The translations under genes were made by a program, and so were the position numbers. The notes under the pieces are model-generated. The model made no database searches and was not told where the DNA came from. It was given only the letters and a program-made list of their open reading frames with translations. Shown piece after piece: positions 1 to 16,606 of a DNA stretch of 16,606 nucleotides. Positions within the stretch are counted from its first letter, which is position 1; every line of letters starts with the position of its first letter. Source of the stretch: a virus (taxonomy: Duplodnaviria; Heunggongvirae; Uroviricota; Caudoviricetes); the IMG/VR virus record IMGVR_UViG_2623620506_000007, positions 1-16,606 of that record; one strand, given 5' to 3'.

Positions 1-84
1 ATGGCGGGTTATTTGTCCTGGTTATTCCCCCGTTGTAAAATCTCTCCTAAACTTAACGGTACGGCACCACACTTCGGGGATGAA

Positions 85-276
85 ATGTTCGCGCTGGTAC
101 TTTTTGTTTGCTACCTGGATGGCGGTTGTGAAGATATTGTTGTGGATGTCTACAACACGGAACAGCAGTGTCTTTATTCTATGAGCGATCAACGGATCCG
201 CCATGGCGGTTGTTTTCCGATTGAGGATTTTATAGATGGTTTCTGGCGACCTGCACAGGAGTACGGTGATTTTTAA
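85..276 (+). CDS. yebW: Small conserved protein, YebW-like (63 aa from the internal ATG at 85)
   Basis: ORF 1..276 in the track; the internal ATG at 85 gives a 63-aa product. It is convergent with pphA, which matches the yebW-pphA arrangement I recall from E. coli K-12. Identity rests on synteny and recalled size, not a search. Confidence 0.4.
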   Translation: MFALVLFVCYLDGGCEDIVVDVYNTEQQCLYSMSDQRIRHGGCFPIEDFIDGFWRPAQEYGDF

Positions 277-933
277 TTATTGCAATTGCACAAGAGTCAG
301 TTCGCCCCCAAAGACAGCACCGGTATCAATATAATGCAGGTTGCCAATATCCACGCGATGTCGCAACGGTGTATGACCAAACCAGAAATAATCAGCACCT
401 GTAATTCCCTGCCCTTTTTGGCGTTCACCTAATCGCGAGCGGCTCCACAAGACCTGATGCAAATCAACGTCCTTTTGCCATTCATAAACATCATCTGGAT
501 AATCGGCATGAGCAATAACATGTTTGCCGGTACGACTGTGTACTTCAAGAATAAAGGGCAAATGCTGACATTTTTCCAGCGCCGTTTTCGCTTGTTTCTG
601 TTGATTATCTGCCAGCGCAATAAACCAGTCGCCGCCATTCATCAACCACAAAGACATCTGCTGAGATGCCAGCGCATCCATCGCCATCTGTTCATGATTG
701 CCTCTTACCGCACGAACCCAATGTTGTTCCAGTAACTGCAGACAACGTAAACTTTGCGGCCCACGATCGATAACGTCTCCCACTGAGATAAGTAAATCTC
801 GCCACGGATCAAAACGACAATGCCATAATTTGCGGCGCAACTGCTCAAGACAACCGTGTATATCGCCAGAAAGCCAGATATGTCGCCATTGATGACCCGC
901 AATTCTCTGATAAACGGGCGCAGGCTGTTTCAT
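277..933 (-). CDS. pphA: Serine/threonine protein phosphatase 1, PP1/2A/2B (calcineurin-like) metallophosphatase
   Basis: Metallophosphatase motifs GDIHG, GDVIDRG and GNHE are present in the 219-aa track ORF. The first codon in the track is TTG; the ATG at 933..931 gives 218 aa, preceded by GGAGG about 9 nt upstream. The N-terminus matches my recollection of E. coli PphA/PrpA. Confidence 0.9.
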   Translation of the reverse strand: MKQPAPVYQRIAGHQWRHIWLSGDIHGCLEQLRRKLWHCRFDPWRDLLISVGDVIDRGPQSLRCLQLLEQHWVRAVRGNHEQMAMDALASQQMSLWLMNGGDWFIALADNQQKQAKTALEKCQHLPFILEVHSRTGKHVIAHADYPDDVYEWQKDVDLHQVLWSRSRLGERQKGQGITGADYFWFGHTPLRHRVDIGNLHYIDTGAVFGGELTLVQLQ

Positions 934-1060
934 CAATATTTTCCTCCCGCGCTAAAGATCACATAATCTTAACAAGAATGTTAAAAAACGCTGGACTCAG
1001 ACAGTAGAGTGTGTGTTATGGTTGACTATAAAGTCAGCGAAGGGAATGCTTCTGGCTTTT

Positions 1061-1093
1061 AACAGATAAAAAGAGACCGAACACGATTCCTGT
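1061..1093 (-). ncRNA. sdsR: 3'-terminal fragment of sRNA SdsR/RyeB (terminator half plus U-tract); putative att core
   Basis: The minus strand reads ACAGGAAUCGUGUUCGGUCUCUUUUUAUCUGUU, which matches the 3' end of SdsR as I recall it. The 5' half of the terminator stem that should follow (CCGAACAC) is replaced by CGUAAAC, so similarity stops near 1094. The rest of the sRNA gene is absent. Confidence 0.4.
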
Positions 1094-1104
1094 TTACGCC
1101 CCAA

Positions 1105-1155
1105 TCAATAAAAACCCTTTAAATTCATCGTCATAATCCATAAAACCCTTCAAAA
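1105..1155 (+). repeat. Two direct copies of ATAAAA(A)CCCTT(T/C)AAA about 31 bp apart; candidate integrase arm-type sites
   Basis: caATAAAAACCCTTTAAAttc at about 1108-1123 and ccATAAAACCCTTCAAAAac at about 1140-1155, in non-coding DNA just inside the putative att junction. Confidence 0.3.
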
Positions 1156-1386
1156 ACAACGATGCAATACTTACCATTGCGTTCTTTCAAGATCAAACTT
1201 TTGCCAATCTATTCGAGTGCGCGACGAGTAAATTTCGTGGCGTCATAATCGTTGATTTAATTATCGCGCATTTGCAAAACTATGCGCAGCTCCTTCCAGA
1301 AATCACCTCGGCTTGTTTACAGCCACCCCGACCGCCGGCACAATCGCCACCGATCTGTTTGTATGATTTATGGTGCGCACCGCCTT

Positions 1387-2655
1387 TCAACGGACAATCA
1401 ACAAATCAGAAAATCTTGTCGTATATCGAGGCGACAGCATTTCCCTTTTCATTTGCCACTGCTGCTGAACGCCCTGGCCAGCAAAGTAAATCGTTCCCCT
1501 ACCGTCTTTGGCATTAAGATTATCCAGCAACTCCATGAGCTTCTCGCTGCCTGCCCGCGGCGCGTTCTCATCAAAGAGATTAAGCTGAGCGACACCCTGA
1601 CTGAAGAAGTCGCCAAGCATGACGCCGGCTTTCTGATACCGATGGCCGTCTCGCCAGATTTTGTCCAGGCACTTTACCGCCGCATTGATTATGTCCCGGC
1701 TGTCCTGCGTGGGAATAAGAAGCTTAATTGATGCACTGTTGCCATAGTAGGGTTCATTAAGGGCAAAGGGGCTGGTCTTCACGAAGGCTGAGATAAAGCG
1801 GCAGTACTGATGCTCACCGCGCAGTTTCTCCGCCGCGCGTGCAGCGTAGCTGCAGATAGCCTGGCGCATCTGCTCATAATCGGTAACCCGCTCGCCAAAA
1901 GAGCGGGAGCAGACAATTTCCTGTTTCGCCGGCGCAAACTCCTCCAGTTCAAGGCATGGCTCGCCGCGCAGTTCCCGCACGGTACGCTCCAGCACCACAT
2001 TGAAGTGTTTTCGGATAATCCATGTGCCCTGCTCTGACAGGTCCAGCGCGGTTTTAATGCCCATTGCGTTGAGCTTTTTGCTGATGCGCCTGCCGACGCC
2101 CCAGACATCCTCCACGGGAACGAGAGACATTAGCCGACGCTGGCGATCGACGTTCGACAAATCCACTACGCCGCCGGTCTGCCGCTGCCATTTTTTCGCA
2201 GCGTGATTAGCAAGCTTCGCCAGGGTTTTGGTCTGGGCAATGCCGACGCCCACGGTAAGATGTGTGTTCTGCAAAACCGTAGCGCGAATTTCCCTTCCAA
2301 AATCTTCCAGGTTCCGGCAATTCCGTACGCCAGTGAGATCGCAAAAGGCCTCATCGATTGAGTATATTTCTACGCGAGGGCTCATTTCCTCGAGCGTTGT
2401 CATTACACGCTGGCTCATGTCCGCATACAGCTCATAATTGGAACTGAAGCAGACCACGCCGTAGCGACGGAACAAATCTTTCTGCTTAAAGAAAGGCTCG
2501 CCCATTTTAATGCCCAGCTCTTTCGCCTCCGCAGAACGGGCAATAACACATCCATCATTGTTAGAAAGCACGACCACCGGCCGCCCTTTCAGGTCTGGTC
2601 TAAATACCGTTTCGCAGGATGCGTAAAAAGAATTTACGTCACAGAGCGCGAACAT
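1387..2655 (-). CDS. umuC: UmuC, catalytic subunit of error-prone DNA polymerase V (Y family), 422 aa
   Basis: From the ATG at 2655 the product starts [22 protein letters not shown] and runs full length with the beta-clamp motif QLNLF. It is very similar to enterobacterial UmuC from memory. The track start at 2670 is a longer alternative; the ATG at 2655 overlaps the upstream stop as TGATG. Confidence 0.95.
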
Positions 2656-2930
2656 CACATCACCGGGCAATCATCAAAGTCAGTCGGTTCGCCAGAATGC
2701 GTTAAGATACCGACCAACTGAACATACTCCAGTGATTCCCCTTCAATGGCCTCACCTTCTTCAGTAATCAGCGCATTCCCAGCTTTATACGCATATTGCT
2801 GGCGACCGCAAAACCATATCAGCAATGTGACGCTGGCGTAAGCATGTCTCTCGCACTCTTCTGGAACGTCTAACATTTCGATATTAGGTAAGCTACCGCA
2901 TACCTCAAAGTTCTCTGTGTAATCAATCAT
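2655..2930 (-). CDS. Small acidic 4-Cys protein (91 aa) in the position normally held by umuD; function unknown
   Basis: ATG at 2930 with AAGGGG 7-12 nt upstream, LexA box and promoter directly upstream, and stop overlapping the umuC start (TGATG). No S24 peptidase hallmarks (no GDSM-type serine, no TVKK-type lysine), and it is too short for UmuD (about 139 aa). The other two frames are full of stops, so this is not a frameshifted umuD. Confidence 0.65.
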
Positions 2931-2946
2931 CTGCCCGCCCCTTATG

Positions 2947-2989
2947 TACTGTTTTTATATACAGTAGTTTTAATTTGAGGGCAGAGCAA
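2947..2989 (-). promoter_or_regulatory. LexA (SOS) box overlapping a sigma70-like promoter for the small-ORF-umuC operon
   Basis: Plus strand 2947-2966 is tactgtttttatatacagta, which on the minus strand reads TACTGTATATAAAAACAGTA, a perfect CTGT-N8-ACAG palindrome. It matches the E. coli umuDC operator as I recall it. -35 TTGCTC (2989..2984) and -10 TACTGT (2966..2961) are 17 bp apart, with the -10 inside the LexA box. Confidence 0.85.
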
Positions 2990-2994
2990 GAGAT

Positions 2995-3591
2995 TTACAC
3001 TTCTGGTGATGATGGCCAGTTGATCTGAGGAGCCGTCGAAGTATCGACTCCCTCGAGCGCATCGAGATAATCAAGCCATGCGTTATACTTCGCCTTTTCC
3101 GGATCATTCAGGCGGCCCATAGCTGCTTTGCCGGGCCACTGCTTACTGTTCATAAACTCATTTGCCTGATCGATTCTGTCCTGTTTCTCTGCTTCAGCAG
3201 CCGCAACATCAGCAGTATGTTCAGCTACAGTATCGGTTACCCATTTGGTGCCGTCCCACTTATCGTAGGGACTAGAAGGTGTGATGAGGGTATAACCATC
3301 GTGAATCGGCCCGATGTAATCTACGATTACAGCTGATTTGTCAGTGGTTGAATAAACTCTTTTACCGCGATTATCTTGTTTTTGTTCCCAATTACTACCG
3401 TTGAAAACCGCAACTTTTCCGGCAACCTCATCACCAGGATCAATATCTGTTGAATGCCCGGGCATGCTTACACCGATGTTAATGAATTCGTCAGACCAGC
3501 CCATATATTCTGATGTCACCGAATCATAATAAAAACAGCGAATTTCGCCATTTTGTGTTGCTAATCCATTTTCATCAAAAACAGGTTTCAT
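2995..3591 (-). CDS. Tail fiber assembly protein (Tfa chaperone)
   Basis: 198 aa with the C-terminal stretch KYNAWLDYLDALEGVDTSTAPQINWP typical of lambda Tfa / P2 gpG-type chaperones. It lies immediately downstream of the fiber gene, and its start overlaps the fiber stop (TAATG). Confidence 0.8.
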   Translation of the reverse strand: MKPVFDENGLATQNGEIRCFYYDSVTSEYMGWSDEFINIGVSMPGHSTDIDPGDEVAGKVAVFNGSNWEQKQDNRGKRVYSTTDKSAVIVDYIGPIHDGYTLITPSSPYDKWDGTKWVTDTVAEHTADVAAAEAEKQDRIDQANEFMNSKQWPGKAAMGRLNDPEKAKYNAWLDYLDALEGVDTSTAPQINWPSSPEV

Positions 3592-4313
3592 TACTTAGCC
3601 CTCACCAAAAAGTTAAATGCGATGTTACGCGGCCTTGTCTCGACATCCCCTGTAGAGCCTGTCTCAATGATGTAGTTTGTTAACGTGCCACCAGCGTCCG
3701 CACCAACAACGTACTGCCCAGATGTAGGGTCAAATCCTGTCGCCCCCCAGGTCTTTTCAAATCTATGAGTGTGTGCTTTTAAAGAGTCCGCCTGTGCACT
3801 TAACAACGCCCGGCCGCTATCAATCCCGCGGCCATCATCCCAAACACGCAGAAATTCTCCACGTGCTTCAGTTAGCGTTAGCCCAGGAAATACCAGGGCA
3901 AGTTTTGGGTAGGTTGAAGCTGAAAATGTAGCGCCGTTAAACTTCAGAAACACCATATCTGCCCATTCGGTCATAACGGTATTAGGCATTGCTGACGATG
4001 GCCAGAAGAATGGAATACCAATGGCAGGCGCACCCGCCTCTAAGCGCAGGTTCTTGATAAGCGCATTCGTGAATTTTGTCACCAGGCCATTGACGTCTGC
4101 ATTGTCCAGGGCATCAACGCCGGAGTTGGCAATAAACTGTCCCACTACCGCTGCGATAGTAGTCGCTTGGCGAAGCGCTTTATTTACTTGTGCGCTGGAC
4201 GCTTTGCCTGCAGCAAAACCAGACAGCAACGCGGGTAGCGCTTCCCAGCCAGCCTGTGGAGTTACATTAGCGTTAGGATCAAGCGCGAACGCTTTAAAGT
4301 TGTTTGTTGCCAT
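3591..4313 (-). CDS. Tail fiber protein with tail-collar-type domain
   Basis: Contains EARGEFLRVWDDGRGIDSGRALLSAQADSLKAHTH, which resembles the phage tail-collar / fiber motif. The ATG at 4313 (MATNNFKAF...) is preferred to the track start at 4331. Only about 240 aa, which is short for a fiber. Confidence 0.7.
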   Translation of the reverse strand: MATNNFKAFALDPNANVTPQAGWEALPALLSGFAAGKASSAQVNKALRQATTIAAVVGQFIANSGVDALDNADVNGLVTKFTNALIKNLRLEAGAPAIGIPFFWPSSAMPNTVMTEWADMVFLKFNGATFSASTYPKLALVFPGLTLTEARGEFLRVWDDGRGIDSGRALLSAQADSLKAHTHRFEKTWGATGFDPTSGQYVVGADAGGTLTNYIIETGSTGDVETRPRNIAFNFLVRAK

Positions 4314-4993
4314 CAGAATAATACCCCCCATGCGCCGGTATCAAAACCGCCGATATATTCGTTATCCATATCAAAACCAAAGAATTTTGAGCCTTCGGAG
4401 GGTGTTTCAACCGAAGGCATTTCAACATCACCAGCCCATACGCCAGCTGCTTTAACGGTGAGATAACCCTGCTTGATAGCGGCAATCAGTTCGAGTGACA
4501 CATCCGAAATATCGGTCTCCGGGAATACCCAGACCGAGATCGTCATGTCCTGGTTGTCAACGATCTGCATCTTCAGGCCCGAACCCACCGTGGCAGTGTC
4601 AAGAATGTCCGGAAGCGAATCGTTACGCCCGTCCCAGTTGTTAATAGCGATTTTTGCTTTCAGAATAGTGCGATAGGTATCATCGCTAAGCGTCGTATAG
4701 CCGGAGTCAGGATCATATGGCCCCTGCCATACGCCCTGGTCATATCCGAGCCCCTCCGTGTCCCAGCTGAAATAAACGCCACTTATCGGCTGGCTGACTA
4801 TACGGCTACGTCCAATCCAGAGTCCGAGAATATCGAGCTGCACGCCAACAGCCGTATCGATGTCAAACGCACCCACCAGACCCCTTGTGGCTGACGTGAT
4901 ATCAATCAGGGGACGGGTACTCAGGTCGATGTGATCGAGGTATTTCGGCTTAGTGGCGTGGTAGTTAGTGATTAAATCCGTGTACCTGCTCAT
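4313..4993 (-). CDS. Baseplate / tail protein, DUF2612-like (e14 YmfQ-like)
   Basis: 226 aa between the J-like gene and the fiber, the position held by YmfQ-type proteins in e14/SfV-like tails. Start overlaps the J-like stop (ATGA). Family assignment is from position and general character, not a search. Confidence 0.5.
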   Translation of the reverse strand: MSRYTDLITNYHATKPKYLDHIDLSTRPLIDITSATRGLVGAFDIDTAVGVQLDILGLWIGRSRIVSQPISGVYFSWDTEGLGYDQGVWQGPYDPDSGYTTLSDDTYRTILKAKIAINNWDGRNDSLPDILDTATVGSGLKMQIVDNQDMTISVWVFPETDISDVSLELIAAIKQGYLTVKAAGVWAGDVEMPSVETPSEGSKFFGFDMDNEYIGGFDTGAWGVLF

Positions 4994-6189
4994 GACGTCA
5001 CCGTGATAACGATGTTTGCCGGTTTACATGAAGCTGATTCGTCGTAGGCTATGATTATGTTTGCCGATGCTACGGATCCTGCTGATTTACCGATGAGTAA
5101 TTCCTGGATGTCGTAATAACGCGCGCTACCGCCGCTGACCACCCCGAGGTTGGCAGGTGAATAAATGCGGCTCAGCAGCACCGAATCACCGATCGTCAGA
5201 GCGTTGATGTAATCCGCAACGGCCTGCTGAATCGCCTTCCCTATTTGTGATGTGTAACCTGCGAAAGCTTTCAGCGTTATATGTCCGTAAATAGGAACAT
5301 CCGTTGACCGGGAAAAGCGAATCACATGGGGATTACCGTATTTATCCGGCACCGTGACGGCTGTCGCACCATACGTTGACACCCCCTGCCCCTTATTGCC
5401 CCTGATGGCCTGGGCGATTTCAGTCAGATCGCCGCCATCCACGATGGCAGAGATAGAGTGTGGCGGCAGCCCATTACTGTCGGTCGTGCCGGTATCATTC
5501 TCGTAGAGCTTGTGACGTGTAACCCCTGCAACGTTCACTATCGCACCGTCCACGCCTTCAAACGGCGTGATGGAGGGTAGCGCGACGCTCTGCCCCTGCC
5601 GGGTACGCAACTCTGCATCGGTTTCCGCCGGGGAGCCGACGGTGGCCGCCGCCGGGTTAGTTACCGAAGTCCAGCCGCGCGTCGGTGTGTTAATGGTCGT
5701 GACCGTTCCGGACAGCGCGGCCACTGCGCCGCTATTTGAGCAGGTGGCAGTGACCGTCGCCGTCCCGTCTAAACCAATTACCACTGAGGCCGGCATGTTC
5801 CAGACCAGGCCATTCTTATCCCTGACGGAACCATTTGAAATGGTCGTCCCGGCCGCGCCGCTAAGCAATAAATCAACCGTTGAGTTGGTAGCCGTTCTCC
5901 TTTTGATACCGTTTATTTTTACGTTCTTGCTCAGCCCTGCGCCATAACCGGTGGCGGGCGAAAAGCTGTTGTAAACAGCAATGGCCGTGTTATTAGCATC
6001 GTGAATAGCCAGGGCCACCAGAGCAACCATCTGCCCGTCTTTGCTGTCAGGATTCAGATAAGCATCGCTGCCATATATCTGTTTAAAGTAGTTGGTCAGG
6101 GTGTCCAGTATTGTCTGGTAATCAGGCGCGCTGATCCCCTCAGCGGTTACCGTTGCCGATAAGCCGAGCGTGTCCAAATTGAGGGCCAT
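4990..6189 (-). CDS. Baseplate J-like protein (P2 gpJ / Mu gp47 family)
   Basis: 399 aa, Thr/Gly/Ala-rich, in the canonical position after the gp25-like gene and directly abutting it. Confidence 0.75.
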   Translation of the reverse strand: MALNLDTLGLSATVTAEGISAPDYQTILDTLTNYFKQIYGSDAYLNPDSKDGQMVALVALAIHDANNTAIAVYNSFSPATGYGAGLSKNVKINGIKRRTATNSTVDLLLSGAAGTTISNGSVRDKNGLVWNMPASVVIGLDGTATVTATCSNSGAVAALSGTVTTINTPTRGWTSVTNPAAATVGSPAETDAELRTRQGQSVALPSITPFEGVDGAIVNVAGVTRHKLYENDTGTTDSNGLPPHSISAIVDGGDLTEIAQAIRGNKGQGVSTYGATAVTVPDKYGNPHVIRFSRSTDVPIYGHITLKAFAGYTSQIGKAIQQAVADYINALTIGDSVLLSRIYSPANLGVVSGGSARYYDIQELLIGKSAGSVASANIIIAYDESASCKPANIVITVTS

Positions 6190-6543
6190 TTATGCCTCGC
6201 TGGTAAGGGTGGTTTGTCCGTAGATAGTGTTTATGGTGGCTGTGAACGTAACCCGGCGTGTCGTGCTTTCATTCACGGTATCAAAGGCCAGGATGGACAG
6301 AACGCCAGGCGTGGTGCTGATGCGATCCCTGATCGCAAGGTTATAAACCTCAGGCCTTTGCTTTCCCAGAACAGACTGGATATAGGGTGTGCCCGCGGTC
6401 GTGTCCAGAAACCACTGGCCCTTCCACAGTTCAAAGCGAGTTTTTACGGCCTGGGCCACGCACTCAGGGGAGTTGATCAGGAAAGTATCATCGCCCTGGC
6501 CGAAGGTGTAGTCTCCGTCTTCGTCTTCGCGTCGGTATCGCAT
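6190..6543 (-). CDS. Baseplate wedge protein, GPW / gp25-like
   Basis: 117 aa between the spike and J-like genes. The segment AQAVKTRFELWKGQWFLDTTAGTPY fits the gp25/GPW pattern as I recall it. Confidence 0.5.
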   Translation of the reverse strand: MRYRREDEDGDYTFGQGDDTFLINSPECVAQAVKTRFELWKGQWFLDTTAGTPYIQSVLGKQRPEVYNLAIRDRISTTPGVLSILAFDTVNESTTRRVTFTATINTIYGQTTLTSEA

Positions 6544-6545
6544 AA

Positions 6546-7199
6546 TTACCCCCCCAGTGGTTTCGTATTGCTGCCGCCGCTTTCCACGCCGCCATGCGTA
6601 TGCTTATCAACCATTGAGCCATCCACCAGCTGCAGGCGGCCGTCAGGCAGAATTTTCAAACCGTTGAGGTTAAAACCTCCCGGCGCAGTTCCCGTTATCG
6701 CTCCGGTTGAAGGATTAAGACTCAACCTGGTACCACCGTCGTCGCTGCGCAGTTCAACCGCACTGGTACTGATGCCGCTGATTTTCTTTGCCTGCGACTG
6801 CGGCCCCACTATGGCAAACGCATCACTCAGGTCATGCTGGCGCGGGTCAACCGGTTCCTGTACCCCGCCGCTCTGCCACCAGAAGTCGATGCAGCGATCC
6901 GAGAAGACCAGGAGGCATTCGTCACCGGACTTTACCGGGAAAGTTAAAGTGCAGCCGCCGCCGCGGGGAAACACCACCGGAACGTCTGGCAGGATCGGTA
7001 TCTCCTCAGAAACCAGAGCACCATCGTCGCCGAGCCGCTGACCATAGATGGCCGGCTGCACGGTGCATGTCACTGTTTCAGGGTCAAAGGACTGGATGAT
7101 CCCCGGCAAAGCCACGCGCAAGCTGCCGAAAATGGCGTGGCGATGCGCCTCAAGGGTCTGCGATTCGTTGCCGTCCTGCGCGCGGGCTGATACTGGCAT
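6546..7199 (-). CDS. Baseplate spike / assembly protein V-like (Mu gp45 / P2 gpV type)
   Basis: 217 aa with a Gly-rich C-terminal tip carrying HTH (VDKHTHGGVESGG), as in the metal-binding apex of gpV-type spikes. GGAGA lies 7-11 nt upstream of the ATG at 7199. Confidence 0.65.
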   Translation of the reverse strand: MPVSARAQDGNESQTLEAHRHAIFGSLRVALPGIIQSFDPETVTCTVQPAIYGQRLGDDGALVSEEIPILPDVPVVFPRGGGCTLTFPVKSGDECLLVFSDRCIDFWWQSGGVQEPVDPRQHDLSDAFAIVGPQSQAKKISGISTSAVELRSDDGGTRLSLNPSTGAITGTAPGGFNLNGLKILPDGRLQLVDGSMVDKHTHGGVESGGSNTKPLGG

Positions 7200-7210
7200 A
7201 GTTTTCTCCA

Positions 7211-7240
7211 GGCAATAAAAAACCCGCCGTAGCGGGTTTG
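7211..7240 (-). terminator. Rho-independent terminator for the minus-strand transcript
   Basis: Minus strand reads CAAACCCGC-UACG-GCGGGUUU followed by UUUUUUAUU: an 8-bp GC-rich stem with a 4-nt loop and a U-tract. It sits 16 nt after the stop at 7256 and directly upstream of the spike gene RBS. Confidence 0.7.
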
Positions 7241-7255
7241 CGTGAAAAGGTGATT

Positions 7256-7576
7256 TTATATGTCTTTTTTAAGTACTAACTGGCAGTCATCCTTGGTTAA
7301 TCCCAAAACTTTTGCCGACTCCTCATAACCGCAGGCGGTTTTCACTCTCCTGAATCCGAGCAAGGCAAACTTATCACCTTGGGTTTCCATGAGATGTTTT
7401 TCGTCCCCACCTTCTCTTCTTGCGAAGCCTGCAGCTTCAAATCTTGATGCTTTTGATATAGCCACATGAACCGGGAAGTTTTCATCCAGATCGGGATGTT
7501 TTTTGAAGAAGTCAGCCAACGTTCCAGCCGTACATGAAAATGAAGCCAGGATGATAAAAACAAGCAGTCCTTTCAT
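7256..7576 (-). CDS. Small exported protein (106 aa, N-terminal signal peptide, Cys-containing); moron gene 2
   Basis: N-terminus MKGLLVFIILASFSCTAG is hydrophobic and signal-like, with no canonical lipobox. Local GC is lower than in the flanking tail genes, and the terminator follows. Confidence 0.55.
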   Translation of the reverse strand: MKGLLVFIILASFSCTAGTLADFFKKHPDLDENFPVHVAISKASRFEAAGFARREGGDEKHLMETQGDKFALLGFRRVKTACGYEESAKVLGLTKDDCQLVLKKDI

Positions 7577-7581
7577 GATAG

Positions 7582-7911
7582 TTACCCATTAGCACTACAG
7601 TTATAAGTCCCAAAAACTCGCGGAGCGTTCATATTTGCCCTAAGCGCTTCAACATTCAAAAAAGCCTTGCCGTCACGCTTAATCAGTTCATAGCCATATG
7701 CATACCCATCAGGGGCAGGGGACAAAACCATCTCAAGCTTCATGTTGGAATAGTCGCCTTTCGCCTTCAAAAAAGTAACTTTTTGAGTGCTGGTCACCAC
7801 CCCGTTTATTGTCGTTTCGCCTGACTCGTTGGCATCAACTAGCCATTTACCACACTTTAACCCCGAGGCATGACTAATGCCTGCAGCCAGTAGCACCAAG
7901 ATACCTAACAT
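7582..7911 (-). CDS. Small exported protein (109 aa from the ATG at 7911, signal peptide with SHA-SG cleavage-like site); moron gene 1
   Basis: The track ORF 7582..8028 overlaps the hub gene by 110 nt. The internal ATG at 7911 gives MLGILVLLAAGISHASG..., a typical signal peptide, and starts 7 nt after the hub stop. Low-GC segment. Confidence 0.55.
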   Translation of the reverse strand: MLGILVLLAAGISHASGLKCGKWLVDANESGETTINGVVTSTQKVTFLKAKGDYSNMKLEMVLSPAPDGYAYGYELIKRDGKAFLNVEALRANMNAPRVFGTYNCSANG

Positions 7912-7918
7912 CCTAATG

Positions 7919-8992
7919 TTAACCGCCACCTGGAACTCCCCTTGCGATTGCAGAGCTCGATAATAAATCCTTCGCCCCGCGCGCCATACACATGAGGTCC
8001 ATATACCATGGATTTCCCCTCGTATCACCGGTGTAGCTGATTGACTGAACTATGTAAACGCCATCAGTTGCCACACTGGCGGGCTGCGCAATAGTGCCGC
8101 CAAGGGAAAGGTTACCATCATTGCTCGACTCTGTGATCCTTGACTGTGATCTTTGAATTTCGTCGTTGGGCAGCTGCGAACGATAGACTGATGCCTGGTC
8201 CAGCTGGATCAGGCCATTCACACGGATGTTTGGGTTGATGAGACAGCGAACATTGACGCCGGCGCCCATGGTTTGCTGGGGCATGCCGACCAGTCCCGTT
8301 TCACTACTGAGCACGCTCGCTTCATGAAGGTATTTATTCTCAGGCACCATTTGCAGCTGGCCGTCGACAAATTGCCAGTTAGCCTCGCACTGCGCCGCCA
8401 GGTTGCTCATGTAGTCGCGCGTTGCGCCGAAGAAGACGCGACCACGTGGCATGACACGGTCAGGAAACTGCACGGTGATGCCCTGGGTGATGCCGTAAGG
8501 CGAAAAGTCCTTCATCAGAAGTGAATGCACGTCGGCAAGCTTATATCCTGCCGCCAGGCTACCGGACGATACGGCTTCATTGAACGCCTTATGGCCATCC
8601 ACCGACTGAATTAGCGTAAAAATATCGGTAGGATTATCGCGCCCGGTTATCGTAAAACGGATCTCTCCATCAAAAATAACCCCGTAATTCTGCCCGCGCG
8701 TCTGGCCGGTTTGCTCAGATGAAATCTCGGTAACCTGCCCAACCTCACTTTCGGTAACCGTCGGCGCCAGGCCGTTATACCCGGCTATGATGGTAATGCG
8801 AGAAAACTCATCCCCCGTAATCCGGGTGATTGTGTCACGCTTGAGGTTGTAAATTTTAAGCGTCGCCACACGTGGCCACATCGAGTTAAACCAGTCGATT
8901 GCGAAGGTAACTTTAAAGTCCGACAGGGATATTCCGTTCCCCTTGTCGTTCAGAAGCCGCAGTTCAAAATGGCGATTCCAGTTAATAGTCAT
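7919..8992 (-). CDS. Probable baseplate hub protein (P2 gpD / Mu gpP-like)
   Basis: 357 aa in the position that follows the tape measure and small tail proteins and precedes the spike in Mu-like tails. The call is based on gene order and size only. Confidence 0.45.
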   Translation of the reverse strand: MTINWNRHFELRLLNDKGNGISLSDFKVTFAIDWFNSMWPRVATLKIYNLKRDTITRITGDEFSRITIIAGYNGLAPTVTESEVGQVTEISSEQTGQTRGQNYGVIFDGEIRFTITGRDNPTDIFTLIQSVDGHKAFNEAVSSGSLAAGYKLADVHSLLMKDFSPYGITQGITVQFPDRVMPRGRVFFGATRDYMSNLAAQCEANWQFVDGQLQMVPENKYLHEASVLSSETGLVGMPQQTMGAGVNVRCLINPNIRVNGLIQLDQASVYRSQLPNDEIQRSQSRITESSNDGNLSLGGTIAQPASVATDGVYIVQSISYTGDTRGNPWYMDLMCMARGAKDLLSSSAIARGVPGGG

Positions 8993-8995
8993 GCG

Positions 8996-9301
8996 CTATT
9001 CCTGAACAAAATAAAGATGGCTCGAGGCACCAAGGTTTGTTTTCGTCGGGTATTCAGGGGCGCCGTTGTCTGTCATAACCACCAGCGCGCCAGATATCCC
9101 CAGATCCGGATACTGAGCCAAAAGGTTAACTCCCGGCACCAAAGGAACACCCATTAACAGAGGTTGCGCGCCGCTATCCATCACGTCCATTATCCAGCCG
9201 GCATCATCGCGCCACAGCACGCGGAGCGTATAGCTTACGTCGCCCAGGGTGATGCGAAACTCCTGGTTATCGGGAATCATAGGTATCTCATTAACGCTCA
9301 T
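8996..9301 (-). CDS. Tail / baseplate protein, function unknown (101 aa)
   Basis: Translationally coupled on both sides: ATGA overlap with the upstream gene, and its stop lies 3 nt from the hub start. Confidence 0.5.
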   Translation of the reverse strand: MSVNEIPMIPDNQEFRITLGDVSYTLRVLWRDDAGWIMDVMDSGAQPLLMGVPLVPGVNLLAQYPDLGISGALVVMTDNGAPEYPTKTNLGASSHLYFVQE

Positions 9302-9876
9302 GGTCCCCTCGCAAAATCAGCTATTTTCTGAATTACAGATGAACTGCTGGTCGGCACCAGAGATTTCATCCCTGTATTTTGTACTGGCGCAGTGCTGACC
9401 CCTTCCTGCATGTTGGCCTTATCCGTAACAGTGATGCTCTGCGTATCAGACATGATCACTTCCCGGAGCGTCAGAACGCATGACAGCACATTTTCGCTGG
9501 TCCGGTCCGTGGTGACCTCGATAGCGCGTATCAGCATATTGCTGTAGGTGCGCTTGCCGGTGACAACATCAAACGGCACCCGGGATTGTTGCAACTCCAG
9601 CAACTGCTGATAAATCTCCCTCGGGCTCTCGCCAACCCGCAAGCCTATGCTGGACAGATTCACCAGGTCGAGTACCGACCCGCCGCCGGCAAATCCGCAC
9701 TCCATAGTGACCTCACTGGCGCGCTTATAGGCGTGGTCGTTTATAGCGGCGCCAAACTCCACCGGATGTTCAGTAATTTCCAGAGCATCAACATGCTTCT
9801 CCGATACCACCACGTCAGGCACAAAAATACCTATTTTCCGAGACTGCAGCCGGAAGATGGCCGACAAAATATCCAT
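9298..9876 (-). CDS. Tail protein, function unknown (192 aa), directly after the tape measure gene
   Basis: Its ATG at 9876 overlaps the tape measure stop (ATGA). Confidence 0.5.
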   Translation of the reverse strand: MDILSAIFRLQSRKIGIFVPDVVVSEKHVDALEITEHPVEFGAAINDHAYKRASEVTMECGFAGGGSVLDLVNLSSIGLRVGESPREIYQQLLELQQSRVPFDVVTGKRTYSNMLIRAIEVTTDRTSENVLSCVLTLREVIMSDTQSITVTDKANMQEGVSTAPVQNTGMKSLVPTSSSSVIQKIADFARGP

Positions 9877-11864
9877 CAGTAGACCCTCGGTTGTAGCTGC
9901 TGAGTGAGACGGGAGTTAACGCCGGATTGACGATCGGCAACCTCCCGGCCAGTGGATGCCGGGTCGCTCGCGCCGTAAATGTTGATGTTCGTTTCCTGGC
10001 TAATCTGAGCTGGTGCGCCAGCCCCCACTCCAGCAGCCATAGTTACCAGTTCGCTTGGATATGGGTTGCGTCCGTTTTCATGGTGGATAATCCCATTCAT
10101 GAGTGATGACAGCACCTGAGGATCTTTCAGGTTCAGTGCGGTATCTGGCGCGACACCGAGTAATTTAGAGAGCTGCGAAATATACGCCTCAGTGTTGTTT
10201 TCACTATCTGGTGCCCAGGTTGAGATGATTTCACTTAGTGTCTGCAAAGGCTTGCCCGTTGTTTTGCCTTCAAAGTAACGCATCAACTGCCGTGCCATTG
10301 CTTTCAGCCCATCAAATGCAGAGCCAAATTTGGCAAATCGCCCTCCTGCCCTCTCTAACTGGGCGCCTTCCTGCCCTTTGAAATCGAGGTTGCCTGGGTT
10401 GTTATTTCTGATGCCACGAGGCAAAGCTGATTGAGCGTGCTGATCTGGGTCTTCCTCACCAGTAAACCATCTGCCAATGCTTCGCGGATCAAAACCAGTC
10501 CGGCTCTTAATCCACTCGGCGGTATTATTCGCGCTATCCGAAACAGCCGGCAAAGCATCGGGATTATCTCTTCCCTGCGCCAGCAGGTTCTTGCCGATCG
10601 CATAAGCATCAGACCACCGGCCCTCGTTGATGGCGTTAATCAGATCGCCAATCATCTTGATCATCTTGCCAAACTCACCGAACTGCCGGGTAAGATTTTC
10701 GATGTCGCCTTTAAGGGTCCAGTTTTTGAGGTTGATATTGAGCAGCTTAGCGATTTCAACTCCTATCGCCTTCACGGAATCCCGCAGCTCGGCCAGCGAT
10801 TTCAGGGCAGCCTCTATTTCTGGCTCCCATTTATCCCAGGGCAGCAGGCTTTGACCGCCTTCTTTCCAGGTTTTGTAGTCGTCGTATAGCGCGAACAGCG
10901 CCGAGCCTAGCGCGATTACGATACCTATCGGCGATTTGAGGAACTCAGTGTTAAGCAACTGCCAAGCCGAGACCAGCCCGGACACAAGCATGATCAGCTG
11001 CTGTATATCGGGCGGCAGTTTTTTGAACCACTCAATCAGGCCACCTACCGCCTGCGAGACGCGCCACGCCATCTGGGTAATGACATCAGCAGCAAAGAGC
11101 ACCCCCTTCACTATCTTCGTGACCACGCTCTCTATCTTCGGCCAGTTCTCCAGCATCTGCTTGCTGAGATTGTTCAGCGTGCCGCTCAGGCCGCCGGCCA
11201 GATTCGAGCCAACCTTATCGCGCAGGATCCCCAGTAGCGAAACGAAGTTGCGCATGGAGGTCATGAACTTGTTGGACTGCTGCGCGGCCTTGTCAGCATC
11301 AAAGCCTGTCTTCTGCATCATCGACTGGTATTCAGCCGTGAAGCCGGACATTCCGCGCCGCATTGCCATCAGCGTGTTTTCGTCAATGCCCAGCATCTGC
11401 GCGAACTGGTTGGCACGATAATAGGGCATGGTGCTGAGGCGCTGGCCGACGCCGGTGAAGATAGCCGACATGTCACGCATCTGTCCGGAAGCGTCCCGGG
11501 TCTGCACCCCAAGGCGGTTCAGGAAGCCTTCGGCTCCGGGATTGCTGCGCATGAAGCGTGCCAGGCTCTCCAGTGAGTTCTGGGCAGCCTCGGCGCTGGA
11601 GCCGGTTTGTGAGGCAGCGTAGCCAAGTGCCTTGATGCCGTTGACCGATGCCCCGGTGCGTTCCGCGGCCCAGTAGAGTTTATCCAGGCCGCTGGCGATC
11701 GAGGCAGTGAGGCCCACGATGGCCAGCCCCGTTGACTCAACCACGGCCCCCAGTTTTACGACGTTTGCAGCCACACCTTTGAGCGTGGCTTCAAATTTCG
11801 CCTGGCCGGCGCCATCAATGTCGAACCCCAGAGAGACCAGGTAATCACGGATAGTATCAGCCAT
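9876..11864 (-). CDS. Tail tape measure protein (662 aa)
   Basis: Position after the chaperone, size, and Ala/Gly/Gln-rich helical sequence. There is a hydrophobic segment at about residues 290-327 and a distinct motif-rich segment at 483-605 (RGIRNNNPGNLDF ... HHENGRNPYP). GGAG lies about 13 nt upstream of the ATG at 11864. Confidence 0.85.
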   Translation of the reverse strand: MADTIRDYLVSLGFDIDGAGQAKFEATLKGVAANVVKLGAVVESTGLAIVGLTASIASGLDKLYWAAERTGASVNGIKALGYAASQTGSSAEAAQNSLESLARFMRSNPGAEGFLNRLGVQTRDASGQMRDMSAIFTGVGQRLSTMPYYRANQFAQMLGIDENTLMAMRRGMSGFTAEYQSMMQKTGFDADKAAQQSNKFMTSMRNFVSLLGILRDKVGSNLAGGLSGTLNNLSKQMLENWPKIESVVTKIVKGVLFAADVITQMAWRVSQAVGGLIEWFKKLPPDIQQLIMLVSGLVSAWQLLNTEFLKSPIGIVIALGSALFALYDDYKTWKEGGQSLLPWDKWEPEIEAALKSLAELRDSVKAIGVEIAKLLNINLKNWTLKGDIENLTRQFGEFGKMIKMIGDLINAINEGRWSDAYAIGKNLLAQGRDNPDALPAVSDSANNTAEWIKSRTGFDPRSIGRWFTGEEDPDQHAQSALPRGIRNNNPGNLDFKGQEGAQLERAGGRFAKFGSAFDGLKAMARQLMRYFEGKTTGKPLQTLSEIISTWAPDSENNTEAYISQLSKLLGVAPDTALNLKDPQVLSSLMNGIIHHENGRNPYPSELVTMAAGVGAGAPAQISQETNINIYGASDPASTGREVADRQSGVNSRLTQQLQPRVY

Positions 11865-12102
11865 TATTCTGGGCTCTCCATTTGGCTACAAGCGCGTCGT
11901 TATCGTCACGCATATCGAGGTAATCGTTAAGCAGCGCGATGCGGCACAGGTCCACTGCACCGCTGTCGAGGTCTTTCTGATCGAGGTTAAAAGCGAGCGC
12001 CGGACGCAGGATGTAGTCTTCCCCGCCCGGCATCGTATTGAAGGTTATTCCGCTGGCGGGGTGTTCGTCTCGCTGGTAGGGAGTCCTTGCAAAAAATTTC
12101 CC
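11857..12102 (-). other. -1 frame extension ORF of the tail assembly chaperone, reached by a putative programmed frameshift
   Basis: Frame-0 sequence CUG GGA AAU UUU UUG holds overlapping slippery heptamers G_GGA_AAU and U_UUU_UUG (plus 12090-12102). The -1 frame is then open for about 69 codons through the gap to a TGA at 11859..11857, overlapping the tape measure start. The gap is otherwise unannotated. Confidence 0.45.
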
Positions 12103-12470
12103 AGCGAATCGGCGACCACCCGCGCCACAAGCTGCAGCATCACGAACAGGTCGATATCATCAAAGGCCATGGTGCCCTGCTGGCACACCGGCACCCAGGC
12201 GCTCATATGCTTGCGCGCTACCACCTGCAGGCAGGGAAAAAGGATCGCATTCACGTCGTCATCACTGAGGCCGGAAACGGCGCCAGCGATCTTCGGCAGA
12301 ATACTTTCCATCGCGCCTTCGGTGTCTTTGGCATTCAGCTTCGTCTGGATGTTACGGAAGTCAGAAACCAGACCCGCCAGAACCGGCAGCAGCTTGCGGG
12401 ATACCTTTAGCTGTTCGAAAACGCTTAACTTAGCGATACGGTACTGCTGATCCTTGATAGTAATTTCCAT
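12045..12470 (-). CDS. Tail assembly chaperone (lambda gpG / P2 gpE analogue)
   Basis: 141 aa between the tube and tape measure genes, acidic C-terminal half, with a frameshift-accessible extension downstream. Confidence 0.7.
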   Translation of the reverse strand: MEITIKDQQYRIAKLSVFEQLKVSRKLLPVLAGLVSDFRNIQTKLNAKDTEGAMESILPKIAGAVSGLSDDDVNAILFPCLQVVARKHMSAWVPVCQQGTMAFDDIDLFVMLQLVARVVADSLGNFLQGLPTSETNTPPAE

Positions 12471-12473
12471 GAA

Positions 12474-12914
12474 TTAATACTCCCCCAGGAACGGGTCGAT
12501 TTTGATGCAGTCGAACACCCAGGCCACCGTCCCGCCCTCTTTGGCGTTCTGCCAGTCGGGGTGCTTCTGAAAGGCGCCGCCGCGCGCGGTCATGATGTCG
12601 CCAGATGCAGTGTTGCGGAACACAAAGACGTTATTGCCCCACAGCGCGGAAGACTGACTTTGTGCGTTGTAGGCCAGGGACAGCTTTTTGTTTACCGGCG
12701 AGGTTTTCAGGAGGTTAACGGTTACCGTTCCAGCCTTGCCGGCGTGCAGGGAGTGCATGCCCTCACCGTCAGCGCCGATCGTCATGGTGTTTTTATTTTC
12801 AACCATGGCGACGGTGATGCCCTCTTCTGAGTTGGCAGAACCGGCGCCGAGGTCAATCACCCCGGTGGGGCCAGTCATTGACCCCGTGATATCCAGAAAA
12901 GAATAAGTGCTCAT
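12474..12914 (-). CDS. Tail tube protein
   Basis: 146 aa immediately downstream of the sheath gene, typical size and position. G-rich RBS before the ATG at 12914. Confidence 0.7.
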   Translation of the reverse strand: MSTYSFLDITGSMTGPTGVIDLGAGSANSEEGITVAMVENKNTMTIGADGEGMHSLHAGKAGTVTVNLLKTSPVNKKLSLAYNAQSQSSALWGNNVFVFRNTASGDIMTARGGAFQKHPDWQNAKEGGTVAWVFDCIKIDPFLGEY

Positions 12915-12925
12915 TCAGTGCCCCC

Positions 12926-14416
12926 TTAGCGCACCACGTCGATTAATACATCAGCGAAGTGGATAGCCCCCGCCAGTTTGGTTGCTACCTGAATCACCGG
13001 CGCCTTACGCGCTTCACGATCTGCCTGCGCCTGGGCGTTGAGCGGGTTCGCATAAACGTAATAGCCTTTGGTCAGCATATCGCCTGATGTCAGCTGTCCG
13101 ACGTCACCGCCGTTCCAGATCCCCGGTGCCACCAGACCGTTGTTTACAGACTGGTCCATAGACTGTTCGACATTGGTCACCAGGCGCGTCACGCCCGCTT
13201 CGGTCTGCGGGATTTTGGTGGTTGAGGTGTAAAGCAGGTTCCAGAGGTTGTTCTGGACGTAGTTCTGCAGCCAGTCGAGACCGTGGCGCTCGTCGAAGAA
13301 GTCGCCGTTCGACATCACGCCTTCCTGGATGATGGCGGTATCGTTGGCGTAGCGCACAAACACGTTGCAGTTTTTTGCCTTGAGCGTGTCGGCCTGCTGC
13401 GCGGTGATCGTTTCGGCAGTGATGCCCGGCTCCTGCTTGAATTTCAGGGTGATGGTGGTGTTGTTACCCAGGAAATTTACGGTGAACGCGCGACCGAAGG
13501 CGGAAGCTGCCGCATATGGCACCTGGCTGTACTGGCAAAACGTACGGCCATAACCAGCAGCTTTCAGCCTGTAGGCAATATCCGTGGTGCTGGTTGAGTC
13601 CAGGACCTCGGTCGCCGCAGTTGTCACACCGTACACCCGGGAATCGCTCGCAGAGCCGATCAGGGCAGATACATCGATATGGTCCTGGTCCGTCATTGCA
13701 GTATCGGCGATAACCAGTCCATACCAGTCGGCTGAGTAGTTCAGCGCTGTATTCACCGACGGCAGCACTGAGGATGAGGCATCCTGGCCGTTTGACACGG
13801 TGGGGTTATGCGCTGAGTCAATGCCCAGCAGCGGCGCCAGGTCAGTGCCTGTGCCGGCAGCAACAGGAATACCGATCGCCGAGGAGGCCCCGGTAGTGGA
13901 AGATGTCACCACAAACTGATTCGAGCCGGCCACGTAGGAAACGGTGGTACCGGTAAGTTTCGCAGTGACGGCGGTCGCTACTCCGGCCAGATCGGTCACC
14001 GCTGACAGGTCGATACCCGTTACGGTTTTAACAGTGCCGTCCACCGAGATCTTAATCGCACCATCGTCGATCGCGGTAAAGTTTGCTATCGCCTGCTCTG
14101 CAGAGGTCAGTACAGCACCAGTGAGCTTGCCGGCCGTTGCCGGGCTGGAGGCGCGTTCCAGTTTGCCGATATACAGATCGCGGGGCTGCGGCGACTGCTG
14201 GAAGTAAAGGTTTGCCGCCTTGTACTCTTCAGCGGTAGTGCCAAAGTCAGTGGCGACACTTTCGATATCCTGGTAAAGGCGCATCACTTCTGGGGCAGTG
14301 ATTACGTCGGCGGTGCCGAGAACCAGCAGCGCGCCGAAGTTACGCCCGGCCGCCGCGCGAACGGCGAGCGCGACCTGCACGCGAACGACGCGTGATACAG
14401 ATAAGCCGTTAGGCAT
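12926..14416 (-). CDS. Contractile tail sheath protein
   Basis: 496 aa, Thr/Ser/Ala-rich with a conserved-looking C-terminal region, followed by tube, chaperone and tape measure genes. GGAGA lies 8 nt upstream of the ATG at 14416. Confidence 0.85.
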
Positions 14417-14419
14417 GAT

Positions 14420-14971
14420 TTAATCTCCGAAAAATTGTACTGGAGCAGAGAGGATGGATTTGATGCCGTACTCGCGTACCGTCTTGCGCCGTAGCGTCAC
14501 GGACAGGTCGTAGCGGCGCTGCCACTGGTTGTTGACGAGCTCCGGTGCCGGGATGATTCGGCCCACCTCGCCGAGCGTGAGGCCGACGCGATTTAGTTCA
14601 GCATTGTTCTGGGACACGAACAGACCGTTACGAAACGTTTTGGCGTAAGCCTGGCCTGCAGGTCCGTAGAAACAGCAGAGCACCACCAGCGATTCGAATT
14701 GCCACTGGTAGTCGGTGTCGTCGTCTTTGGTTACGGATGCCGGGTTGGCTGTGTCCTGGAAGTCTGTGATACCAAACCCGCACCAGTTGGTGCCCAGCAC
14801 CGGGATCGCTGGCTGAGGGTCGGTGAAGCGTGGTATGGCCATGCCATCCGGCAGACCAGATACACCACGTATCCACCGGCTGAGCTCGCGCTCAAGCGCT
14901 TGGTCATACTGCGGCGCCGGGCTGACTGGCGTCAGGTAACCCGGTTGCGTGGTGTCATTCAACTGGAGCAC
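14420..14971 (-). CDS. Phage structural protein preceding the sheath (neck or tail-terminator candidate)
   Basis: The track ORF begins at a TTG at 15043 and overlaps the upstream gene by 89 nt. The GTG at 14971 with GGAG upstream is the preferred start; an ATG at 14842 is an alternative. Start is uncertain. Confidence 0.4.
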   Translation of the reverse strand: MLQLNDTTQPGYLTPVSPAPQYDQALERELSRWIRGVSGLPDGMAIPRFTDPQPAIPVLGTNWCGFGITDFQDTANPASVTKDDDTDYQWQFESLVVLCCFYGPAGQAYAKTFRNGLFVSQNNAELNRVGLTLGEVGRIIPAPELVNNQWQRRYDLSVTLRRKTVREYGIKSILSAPVQFFGD

Positions 14972-15341
14972 CCCCGTTAAACTCCACCAGCTCACAGTGG
15001 GCCTGAACGAACCCGGCGCCGTATGAGGTGTACGGATCCACAAAAGTTACGCGGTAATGCCGCCCGTTGTAGAGCACCACGTCGGCATCCTGCCCGGGCT
15101 GGCCCTGCGTTAAGCGGAAGGTGGTAATCACCAGGATTGCGCCGTCAATAACCTGCCCTGCCGCCATGCGCCGGGCTTCCAGCGAGCGGTCGACGGTAAC
15201 CACGCCGTTGAACGGTATATCCTCCGGCGTATTGGTCACGAAGCCGTCAGCATCTTTCGCCTGGTGGTTACGGATACAGACCAGCGTGTAATCGCAGAAA
15301 TCTGGATCCGACAACACATCGGTTACATCGAGAAAAGGCAT
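14955..15341 (-). CDS. Phage head-tail joining / neck protein candidate (128 aa)
   Basis: Part of the translationally coupled string upstream of the sheath (TAATG overlap at 15341). Function inferred from position only. Confidence 0.4.
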   Translation of the reverse strand: MPFLDVTDVLSDPDFCDYTLVCIRNHQAKDADGFVTNTPEDIPFNGVVTVDRSLEARRMAAGQVIDGAILVITTFRLTQGQPGQDADVVLYNGRHYRVTFVDPYTSYGAGFVQAHCELVEFNGGAPVE

Positions 15342-15847
15342 TATTTTTTACCTCTCACAACAAATGTGATCGAGCGAAGCAGGTAGCCGTGGTCATACAG
15401 CGGCTTAATGCCTGTGAACCCGCGTCCCCGCCGTCTCTGGATAGTGAGCTCGGATACGGGCTCCAGCCGGTCCCCGTCGGTAATAACGCGCTTCGCGGCA
15501 TCCGATGCCAGTTGCCCTGCGTTAGTAAACTCGCGCTCAGCACCAGAGAAATTGCCATCCAATGCAAGGCCGGCTGCCGTGCCGAGATGCTCAGAAGTGA
15601 TCTTTGACGAATCCTCAATACCGATGTCCAGGAACGGGCGCGGCGGCAAGGTCACCTCCTGCCCACCGAGCCGGACCGTTGCCCCGGTGGATTGCAGATA
15701 GGCGATCTCAGCGTTGTTGAGCTCTTCCCTGTCTTCACGCACCGCGTTGGATTCAGGGATACCCACCAGCACATCCATCCGGGACAGCCTGTCCAGACCA
15801 GCCAGCACCGAGGTGGCATTGTCCGCCCTGACCTTCACGCCGCTCAT
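15341..15847 (-). CDS. Phage head-tail joining / virion morphogenesis protein candidate (168 aa)
   Basis: The ATG at 15847 overlaps the upstream stop (ATGA); the track start at 15886 is a longer alternative. Confidence 0.4.
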   Translation of the reverse strand: MSGVKVRADNATSVLAGLDRLSRMDVLVGIPESNAVREDREELNNAEIAYLQSTGATVRLGGQEVTLPPRPFLDIGIEDSSKITSEHLGTAAGLALDGNFSGAEREFTNAGQLASDAAKRVITDGDRLEPVSELTIQRRRGRGFTGIKPLYDHGYLLRSITFVVRGKK

Positions 15848-16251
15848 AGCAGTTGCCGCCCGCCAGCACCGAACATAGACCACCACCAGAAGAACTCCTG
15901 CCCGTACCCGGTTTTATTCCAGAACCCGGCGTCGGGGTTGATGGTGCCCGAATTGTCATAGCTGACGCTGACCTTATCGACAGACTTCGACGATGCCACA
16001 CCGCTACCGCCGCTACTGACAAAGCCGCCCGATACGCCAGCCAGCGCTCGACCGCGCAGCTCAACGTAATGCGCTGTGAACAGCTCAGCCAGGTAAACGA
16101 ACTGGTCGCCGTGAATGTCCTGGTTGAGGATGGCGTCAGCCTGTCCGAGGTAAAAATTTACGGAGGCGTCTGGATAGCGGGTGGTGTTGGCGAACTCAGG
16201 GAAGTCGGTGCGGAACTGATCACTTGTTGGCAGAAGGCTGTTTTTTGGCAT
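15844..16251 (-). CDS. Phage protein, DUF4054-like head-tail connector candidate (135 aa)
   Basis: The ATG at 16251 is preceded by a perfect AGGAGG 6 nt upstream; the track start at 16272 is a TTG. The Gly/Ser-rich middle and FFWWW C-terminus recall DUF4054-type proteins, from memory. Confidence 0.45.
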   Translation of the reverse strand: MPKNSLLPTSDQFRTDFPEFANTTRYPDASVNFYLGQADAILNQDIHGDQFVYLAELFTAHYVELRGRALAGVSGGFVSSGGSGVASSKSVDKVSVSYDNSGTINPDAGFWNKTGYGQEFFWWWSMFGAGGRQLL

Positions 16252-16606
16252 TGCCAGCCTCCTGTGATGCAAGCTTCTCAGTCAGCTCATCCAGCTGCTG
16301 TTGCAGGCCGGTGATGGTGCCGTCTTTCTCTTCGATTTGCTTCAGCTGATCGTCGATGGTGGTGGTCTTTTCATCCAGCTGCTGTTGCAGGCCGGTGATG
16401 GTGGTCTCCAGCCCGGAGACCTTAAGCGCGAGGTCTTCGTCGCTCTGGCTTTGCTTTAGCTCATCTTCGCTGATGGCCTGCGCATGCGCACCAAACGCCC
16501 AGTGCTCAGTAACGTGCTTATCGAAGCTGTGCACGCCGGGGGTAAGTTCTACCTGCGAACCATCGGAAAAGCGCAGCACGGTCCCGGTATTTACGAGATA
16601 TTTCAT
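16220..16606 (-). CDS. Coiled-coil protein with internal repeats (128 aa); start coincides with the window edge
   Basis: N-terminal domain of about 50 aa followed by a heptad-like coiled coil with a duplicated TITGLQQQLDE unit and a Lys-rich tail. Confidence 0.5.
   Translation of the reverse strand: MKYLVNTGTVLRFSDGSQVELTPGVHSFDKHVTEHWAFGAHAQAISEDELKQSQSDEDLALKVSGLETTITGLQQQLDEKTTTIDDQLKQIEEKDGTITGLQQQLDELTEKLASQEAGNAKKQPSANK
16287..16403 (+). repeat. Perfect 33-bp direct repeat (two copies, 84-bp period) inside the coiled-coil gene
   Basis: tcatccagctgctgttgcaggccggtgatggtg occurs at 16287-16319 and again at 16371-16403. Confidence 0.85.

Follow-up and report, generated by a model that had tools for sequence, protein, structure and literature searches.

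The stretch of DNA analysed here (the window, 16,606 nt in full) joins host DNA to prophage DNA. Its first 1093 positions are E. coli DNA running from yebW through pphA into the intergenic region beyond, and the sequence from 1094 onward belongs to a prophage, with a non-coding arm followed by umuD-like/umuC cargo and myovirus tail genes. When positions 600-1500 were used as a query, every one of the 5426 complete E. coli genomes gave a match, for the most part with an identity of at least 99%, and nearly all of these matches stopped at query base 494, equivalent to window position 1093. The left boundary of the prophage is fixed exactly at 1093/1094. The features to which the text refers are the following.

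1..276, plus strand: host gene yebW (DUF1482), from Pfam DUF1482 (E 3e-35) and its position as in K-12
277..933, minus strand: host gene pphA, a serine/threonine phosphatase, from the pphA annotated under the match in all E. coli genomes and from Pfam Metallophos
934..1065, no strand: host intergenic region between pphA and sdsR, collinear with positions 1835-1966 of the K-12 locus (L001)
1066..1093, minus strand: attR core copy of 28 bp, ATAAAAAGAGACCGAACACGATTCCTGT, comprising the displaced sdsR 3′ end and an internal piece of ryeA, from Rfam mapping and comparison of the core copies of relatives
1094..1245, no strand: phage P′ arm of attR, from the alignment of seven P′ arms at the same site
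1169-1178: conserved block ACTTACCATT, from the P′ arm alignment of seven elements
1192-1203: candidate IHF site ATCAAACTTTTG, from a match to the IHF consensus at a conserved position
1212-1217 and 1234-1239: putative arm-type motifs TTCG(A/T)G, from the P′ arm alignment
1387..2655, minus strand: umuC-like Y-family polymerase, a cargo gene, from NCBIfam UmuC NF002955 (875.6 bits) and Pfam IMS, IMS_C and DUF4113
2655..2930, minus strand: UmuD-like protein of 91 aa, a short form overlapping the umuC start, from PHROG 3469 'UmuD-like protein' (E 6e-18)
2947..2966: perfect LexA (SOS) box TACTGTTTTTATATACAGTA upstream of the umuD-like/umuC operon, from a pattern scan
2995..16606, minus strand: late genes for tail-fibre assembly, tail fibre, baseplate (DUF2612, Baseplate_J), tape measure (662 aa), tube, sheath (DUF3383, 496 aa) and head-tail connectors

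On the host side, the yebW open reading frame is 91 aa long in the window and in most contigs with the same prophage, and RefSeq gives K-12 YebW as 63 aa. On the phage side, the LexA box is the sole exact match in the window, where 0.27 matches would be expected by chance with one mismatch allowed. The 91-aa UmuD-like protein has no match in Pfam or NCBIfam, and its similarity to the PHROG UmuD-like profile is confined to the C-terminal part; it may be a pre-truncated form that would not need RecA-mediated cleavage. The prophage has a contractile tail of the E217/PhiTE-like type; its nearest deposited phages reach only 75-79% identity over ~30% of a query spanning 1080-9000, and none of the 5426 complete E. 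coli genomes carries it. Contigs with the same prophage, such as JAQEMG010000015.1 of GCA_027678455.1, could be followed to the Q antiterminator, 10 kb past the window. The public-assembly collection indexes the exact UmuC protein of the window in 57 blocks. One contig of GCA_001637625.1 (L011), 100% identical to window 6220-16606, stops 32 bp past the right end of the window, so that the window may derive from a draft contig broken inside the prophage. Five further contigs (L016, L017, L019, L020 and L021) carry varied internal deletions in the head and tail genes next to an identical pphA junction, and represent either decaying prophages or assembly collapses.

The host gene interrupted at the break is sdsR (ryeB), which lies on the same strand as pphA and has pphA as its downstream gene. 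Rfam models matched to the intact K-12 locus (L001) put SdsR_RyeB on the minus strand at 1969-2068 (114 bits) and its antisense partner SraC_RyeA on the plus strand at 1965-2109 (175 bits). Because L001 position 1965 corresponds to window 1064, the window retains only positions 75-100 of the SdsR model (window 1068-1093), and the SdsR 3′ ends mapped by RACE to +100 to +102 (PMC6610125) therefore give a remnant of 26-28 nt (1066/1068-1093). This remnant is composed of the final 2 nt of the 5′ stem, followed by a loop of 7 nt (AGGAAUC), GUGUUCGGUCU as the 3′ stem half, and lastly the U-tract. The sequence-only reading had recognized the last 33 nt of SdsR at this position; the 3′ stem half and U-tract do stand beside pphA as it described, but the length must be shortened in view of the Rfam mapping and the RACE ends. 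Its proposal that similarity breaks inside the terminator hairpin near 1094 is borne out by comparison with the intact K-12 locus and the 5426 genomes, identity being lost between 1093 and 1094, within the SdsR terminator hairpin. A full-length sdsR directly right of 1094, which it had named as a finding that would speak against it, is present nowhere in the window.

An Rfam scan of the whole window found no family, SdsR included, and a lax local scan of 940-1400 returned SdsR at 17.1 bits (E 1.9), under the gathering score of 38 for RF00111. By that measure the stretch at the break is a fragment of sdsR and not an SdsR_RyeB gene. Together with its new phage flank, the remnant folds with a minimum free energy of -9 kcal/mol (z -0.06) and forms no terminator stem, where the K-12 sequence forms an 11-bp hairpin; nor was any intrinsic terminator predicted on the minus strand between 900 and 1450. 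A remnant acting as a working terminator that shields pphA was ruled out by the folding and the terminator scan. The junction (1060-1140) is identical in ten independent public contigs from different samples and is therefore real, neither a product of chance nor an assembly artefact.

The same 1066-1093 stretch is also internal to ryeA on the plus strand, a point absent from the sequence-only reading, and the ryeA promoter and 5′ end would remain on the pphA side of the break. RyeA is a sigma-70-dependent RNA of ~270 nt (PMC6610125), and from published RNA lengths its promoter and transcription start would be expected within 934..1065, near 1027. Position 1044, in the ryeA 5′ region and just upstream of the att core, holds a single-nucleotide polymorphism: the window and one other contig (L018) have G, and K-12 and nine other contigs with the same prophage have A.

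Comparison of both ends of related prophages defines the att core. On the pphA side, the copy in relatives reads ATAAAAAGAGACCGAACACGATTCCTGT and then continues into phage DNA; on the int side, phage DNA is followed by ATAAAAAGAGACCGAATACGATTCCTGT and then by ATTCGGTCC of the sdsR body. The layout of the two copies therefore gives a repeat of 28 bp (1066-1093) with the form ATAAAAAGAGACCGAA(C/T)ACGATTCCTGT, in which the single polymorphic base falls at window 1082, the window having C and relatives having T at attL. Among the fetched loci this base is T in 84 int-side (attL) copies and C in 60 pphA-side (attR) copies, with few exceptions, a partition that would place strand exchange within ACGATTCCTGT (1083-1093). 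The T supplied by the phage (for example at L033 11172-11200, at L325 1586-1613 and at 82 other attL loci) converts a G-U pair of the SdsR stem into A-U. The phage-supplied SdsR terminator folds into a perfect 11-bp stem.

The break is not peculiar to one element. The 23-mer at 1071-1093 is present in 49 IMG/VR proviral contigs, and many different elements share the break base, their similarity to the window stopping at 1098, 1113, 1123, 1128, 1206 or 1240; the longest matches, up to 1240, are those of E. coli strain 98232 and the IMG/VR loci L280 and L281. A 35-mer across the junction (1083-1117), searched as an exact pattern in its junction or attP form, had no match in IMG/VR, JGI metagenomes or GTDB representative genomes. 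When the P′ arm of the window was aligned with those of six other elements, the first ~75 bp proved variable and were followed by conserved blocks at fixed spacing. In relatives, three tandem copies of the arm-type motif recur in the P arm beside int. The IHF consensus has only one match in the window and one is expected by chance, so that the weight of the candidate site comes only from its conserved position. This 150-bp phage-side arm has the appearance of a lambda-type P′ arm, to which integrase and IHF would be predicted to bind.

The far end of the prophage was followed in relatives that share its arm or its tail module, where the pattern forecast by the sequence-only reading was found: a second copy of the core, a full-length sdsR with a 3′ end supplied by the phage, and an integrase, which in the relatives is a tyrosine integrase accompanied by an excisionase. 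In E. coli GZ2408P the order is yebY, sdsR, attL, int, xis, recT, recE, replication genes, Q, lysis, head, tail, attR and pphA, with an integrase of 361 aa, a full-length SdsR at the int end (116.4 bits in Rfam), and core copies 42,124 bp apart that carry C at attR and T at attL; its structural genes and tail module are 82% identical to those of the window. Strain 98232, whose arm is that of the window to 1240, holds at the same site a remnant riddled with IS1 and IS3 that retains attL and an intact sdsR, with a 361-aa tyrosine integrase and an excisionase beside yebY. The IMG/VR provirus 2667527965_000003 (48.9 kb) has a window-type arm at one end (L281) and at its int end (L035) an integrase 100% identical to P0001. 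In strain 98232 and in this provirus, as in GZ2408P, the core is repeated at the far boundary and joined there to a full-length sdsR. A tyrosine integrase and an excisionase adjoin the far junction in every relative examined.

To gauge how often the site is occupied, the intact K-12 locus was searched against the 5426 complete E. coli genomes. The sdsR locus was uninterrupted in 5189 and split in 237 (~4%). At 227 of the split loci the int/attL end is that of a 371-aa integrase (WP_001189089.1 type), as in strain 12689, where int and xis adjoin sdsR and yebY; five more have the 361-aa P0001-family type, and the two lineages together make up 232/237. The 371-aa integrase is 50% identical to the P0001 family, whose 361-aa members combine the arm-binding domain PF09003 with PF22022 and the catalytic domain PF00589, are widespread in Enterobacteriaceae, and lie beside yebY wherever examined. 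In IMG/VR contigs, P0001-family integrases recur with the tail type of the window and have a umuC-like gene at the opposite contig end. Since the arm of the window is closest to P0001-associated arms, we infer that its integrase would be of the P0001 family. At least one of the other split loci owes its interruption to something else: FDAARGOS_944 (L324, NZ_CP065613.1 ~424000-424950) has IS1A inserted ~6 nt inside the sdsR 5′ end, independently of the att site, so that split sdsR loci cannot all be taken for prophages.

Taken together, these results make it highly probable that 1066-1245 is the attR of a temperate, lambdoid-type myovirus prophage placed by a lambda-family tyrosine integrase in the last ~28 bp of sdsR/ryeB. 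The earlier proposal of site-specific integration at the sdsR 3′ end is supported by the prophage DNA that begins right at the break, by the layout of the P′ arm, by the published att site and by the relatives. In the proposed course of events, attP would bring its own copy of the sdsR 3′ end, and an integrase with an arm-binding domain would act at the last ~28 bp of the gene, with recombination probably falling within ACGATTCCTGT (1083-1093). The original sdsR 3′ end of the host would be left beside pphA, joined to the phage P′ arm, and at the far end, as judged from relatives, the sdsR body would gain the phage-supplied terminator half beside int and xis, so that sdsR would stay intact. The whole element would measure ~42 kb if it resembles that of GZ2408P. 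Two consequences would follow: ryeA would have its promoter and 5′ end severed from its body, as has been published for PhiW104, and pphA would be separated from the sdsR promoter.

Two other accounts of the junction were weighed against this reading. The prophage could have integrated here and since become an immobile, decayed remnant whose far end (int, attL or sdsR) is deleted or rearranged, with sdsR truly lost. The window ends before the far boundary of its prophage, many public copies of the same prophage are internally deleted (L016, L017, L019-L021), and strain 98232 harbours an IS1- and IS3-riddled remnant at this very site; given such deletions, the copy in the window may no longer excise. 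However, even strain 98232 retains int, xis and attL together with an unbroken sdsR, the prophage part of the window (15.5 kb) is full-length and collinear with undeleted contigs at 99.9-100% identity, and contigs L005-L008 run unbroken through the head, terminase, lysis and Q genes, which leaves decay with loss of sdsR improbable. Still less credit is due to a junction formed by transposition, illegitimate recombination or assembly chimerism, with a coincidental match to the end of sdsR: nothing specific speaks for such a route, although the integrase gene lies outside the window. Against it, the same break base recurs in unrelated proviruses by the dozen, as it does at 232 of the 237 loci split in complete genomes, those 232 carry one of two related integrases, and the P′ arm architecture is conserved; moreover, no IS ends or transposase occur at 1094, ten independent assemblies have an identical junction, and the genuine IS1 insertion in the locus lies elsewhere, at the sdsR 5′ end. 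A route without integrase is effectively refuted by the recurring exact break point, and we regard it as having a negligible probability.

Site-specific integration at sdsR has precedents. The last 23 bp of ryeB are the att site reported by Balbontin et al. in 2008 (J Bacteriol 190:4075), as described in PMC7380047 and PMC3333887. According to PMC7380047, PMC3333887 and PMC3603311, the Salmonella ryeB site is internal to ryeA and has been used repeatedly in Salmonella evolution and by PhiW104, whose lysogeny alters the 5′ part of ryeA, lowers ryeA expression and raises ryeB expression. An island named Cfr111.52.RyeB (PMC10111431) also contains 'RyeB', which we read as a label for the integration target. 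The prophage of the window resembles PhiW104 and the Balbontin site in the target, in the expected retention of sdsR with replacement of the 5′ part of ryeA, and in the recurrence of the site as a hot spot in both settings. It differs in its E. coli host and in its mosaic make-up, which combines an E217/PhiTE-like contractile tail with umuDC-like cargo, and its repeat spans 28 bp with one polymorphic base, whereas that of Balbontin spans 23 bp. The lambdoid prophages with the 371-aa integrase, from STEC and other E. coli, share the att site, the int-xis-attL-sdsR-yebY layout and similar tandem arm-type motifs, but their P′ arms diverge from that of the window within 5-35 bp of the core and their tail and cargo genes are others, such as nleG7 and lambda-like fibres. 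As in lambda attP, a PF09003 integrase would be paired with repeated arm-type motifs on both arms and with a match to the IHF consensus placed between the P′ sites and the core, whereas the putative IHF site lies, unlike that of lambda, ~100 bp from the core.

P4, P22, Fels-2 and others are known to integrate at the 3′ ends of genes for tRNA or tmRNA, and a 2002 account by Williams reportedly describes prophages and islands at such ends. The logic is the same, in that a structured-RNA 3′ stem-loop is targeted and attP carries a replacement 3′ end, and so is the layout, with int beside the restored gene and the displaced 3′ fragment at the other end. The present case mostly confirms this textbook behaviour, in which phages target the 3′ end of a structured-RNA gene and restore it from a copy that they carry. 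The prophage of the window is one more mosaic member at a known, common att site. Unlike the tRNA and tmRNA cases, the target is an Hfq-dependent sRNA with an antisense partner, RyeA, and integration would thereby also rewire the overlapping gene and the downstream, co-transcribed pphA.

SdsR, a toxin-like sRNA, forms a three-way regulatory unit with its antisense antagonist RyeA and with pphA, which receives read-through from sdsR. A lysogen at this locus would thus be a natural experiment in uncoupling the parts. Such uncoupling has been studied for ryeA/ryeB in Salmonella, and a study of the effect of lysogeny at the sdsR site on pphA was not found in the searchable literature. If the proposed arrangement is correct, the orphaned ryeA promoter would fire into the end of the prophage, antisense to the umuC 3′ end. 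For pphA itself, transcription comes mainly from the promoter of sdsR, which depends on sigma-S, via read-through of the sdsR terminator (Choi et al. 2019, PMC6610125). In the window, pphA lies 450 bp downstream of the LexA-boxed umuD-like/umuC operon on the same strand, and no minus-strand terminator was predicted between umuC and pphA (1387 to 936). With no predicted terminator and an old terminator half that is unable to fold, pphA could come under SOS rather than stationary-phase control. That the insertion does rewire host control in this way, by read-through from the umuD-like/umuC operon, is a speculative suggestion, and we consider it rather doubtful.

The structural module of this prophage is also found away from sdsR. 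Among complete genomes, the relatives with the best structural match (H51-H54, 93% identical) sit elsewhere, beside yciI/tonB, and were set aside as evidence on the att site. In NCTC11023 (L004, NZ_LS483297.1 2611398-2644329), a head and tail module 93% identical to window 4075-16606 is inserted beside yciI/tonB, and its tail-fibre end carries a small invertase-like recombinase and no umuDC. Set against the window, the NCTC11023 prophage clearly exemplifies the shuffling of modules between integration modules.
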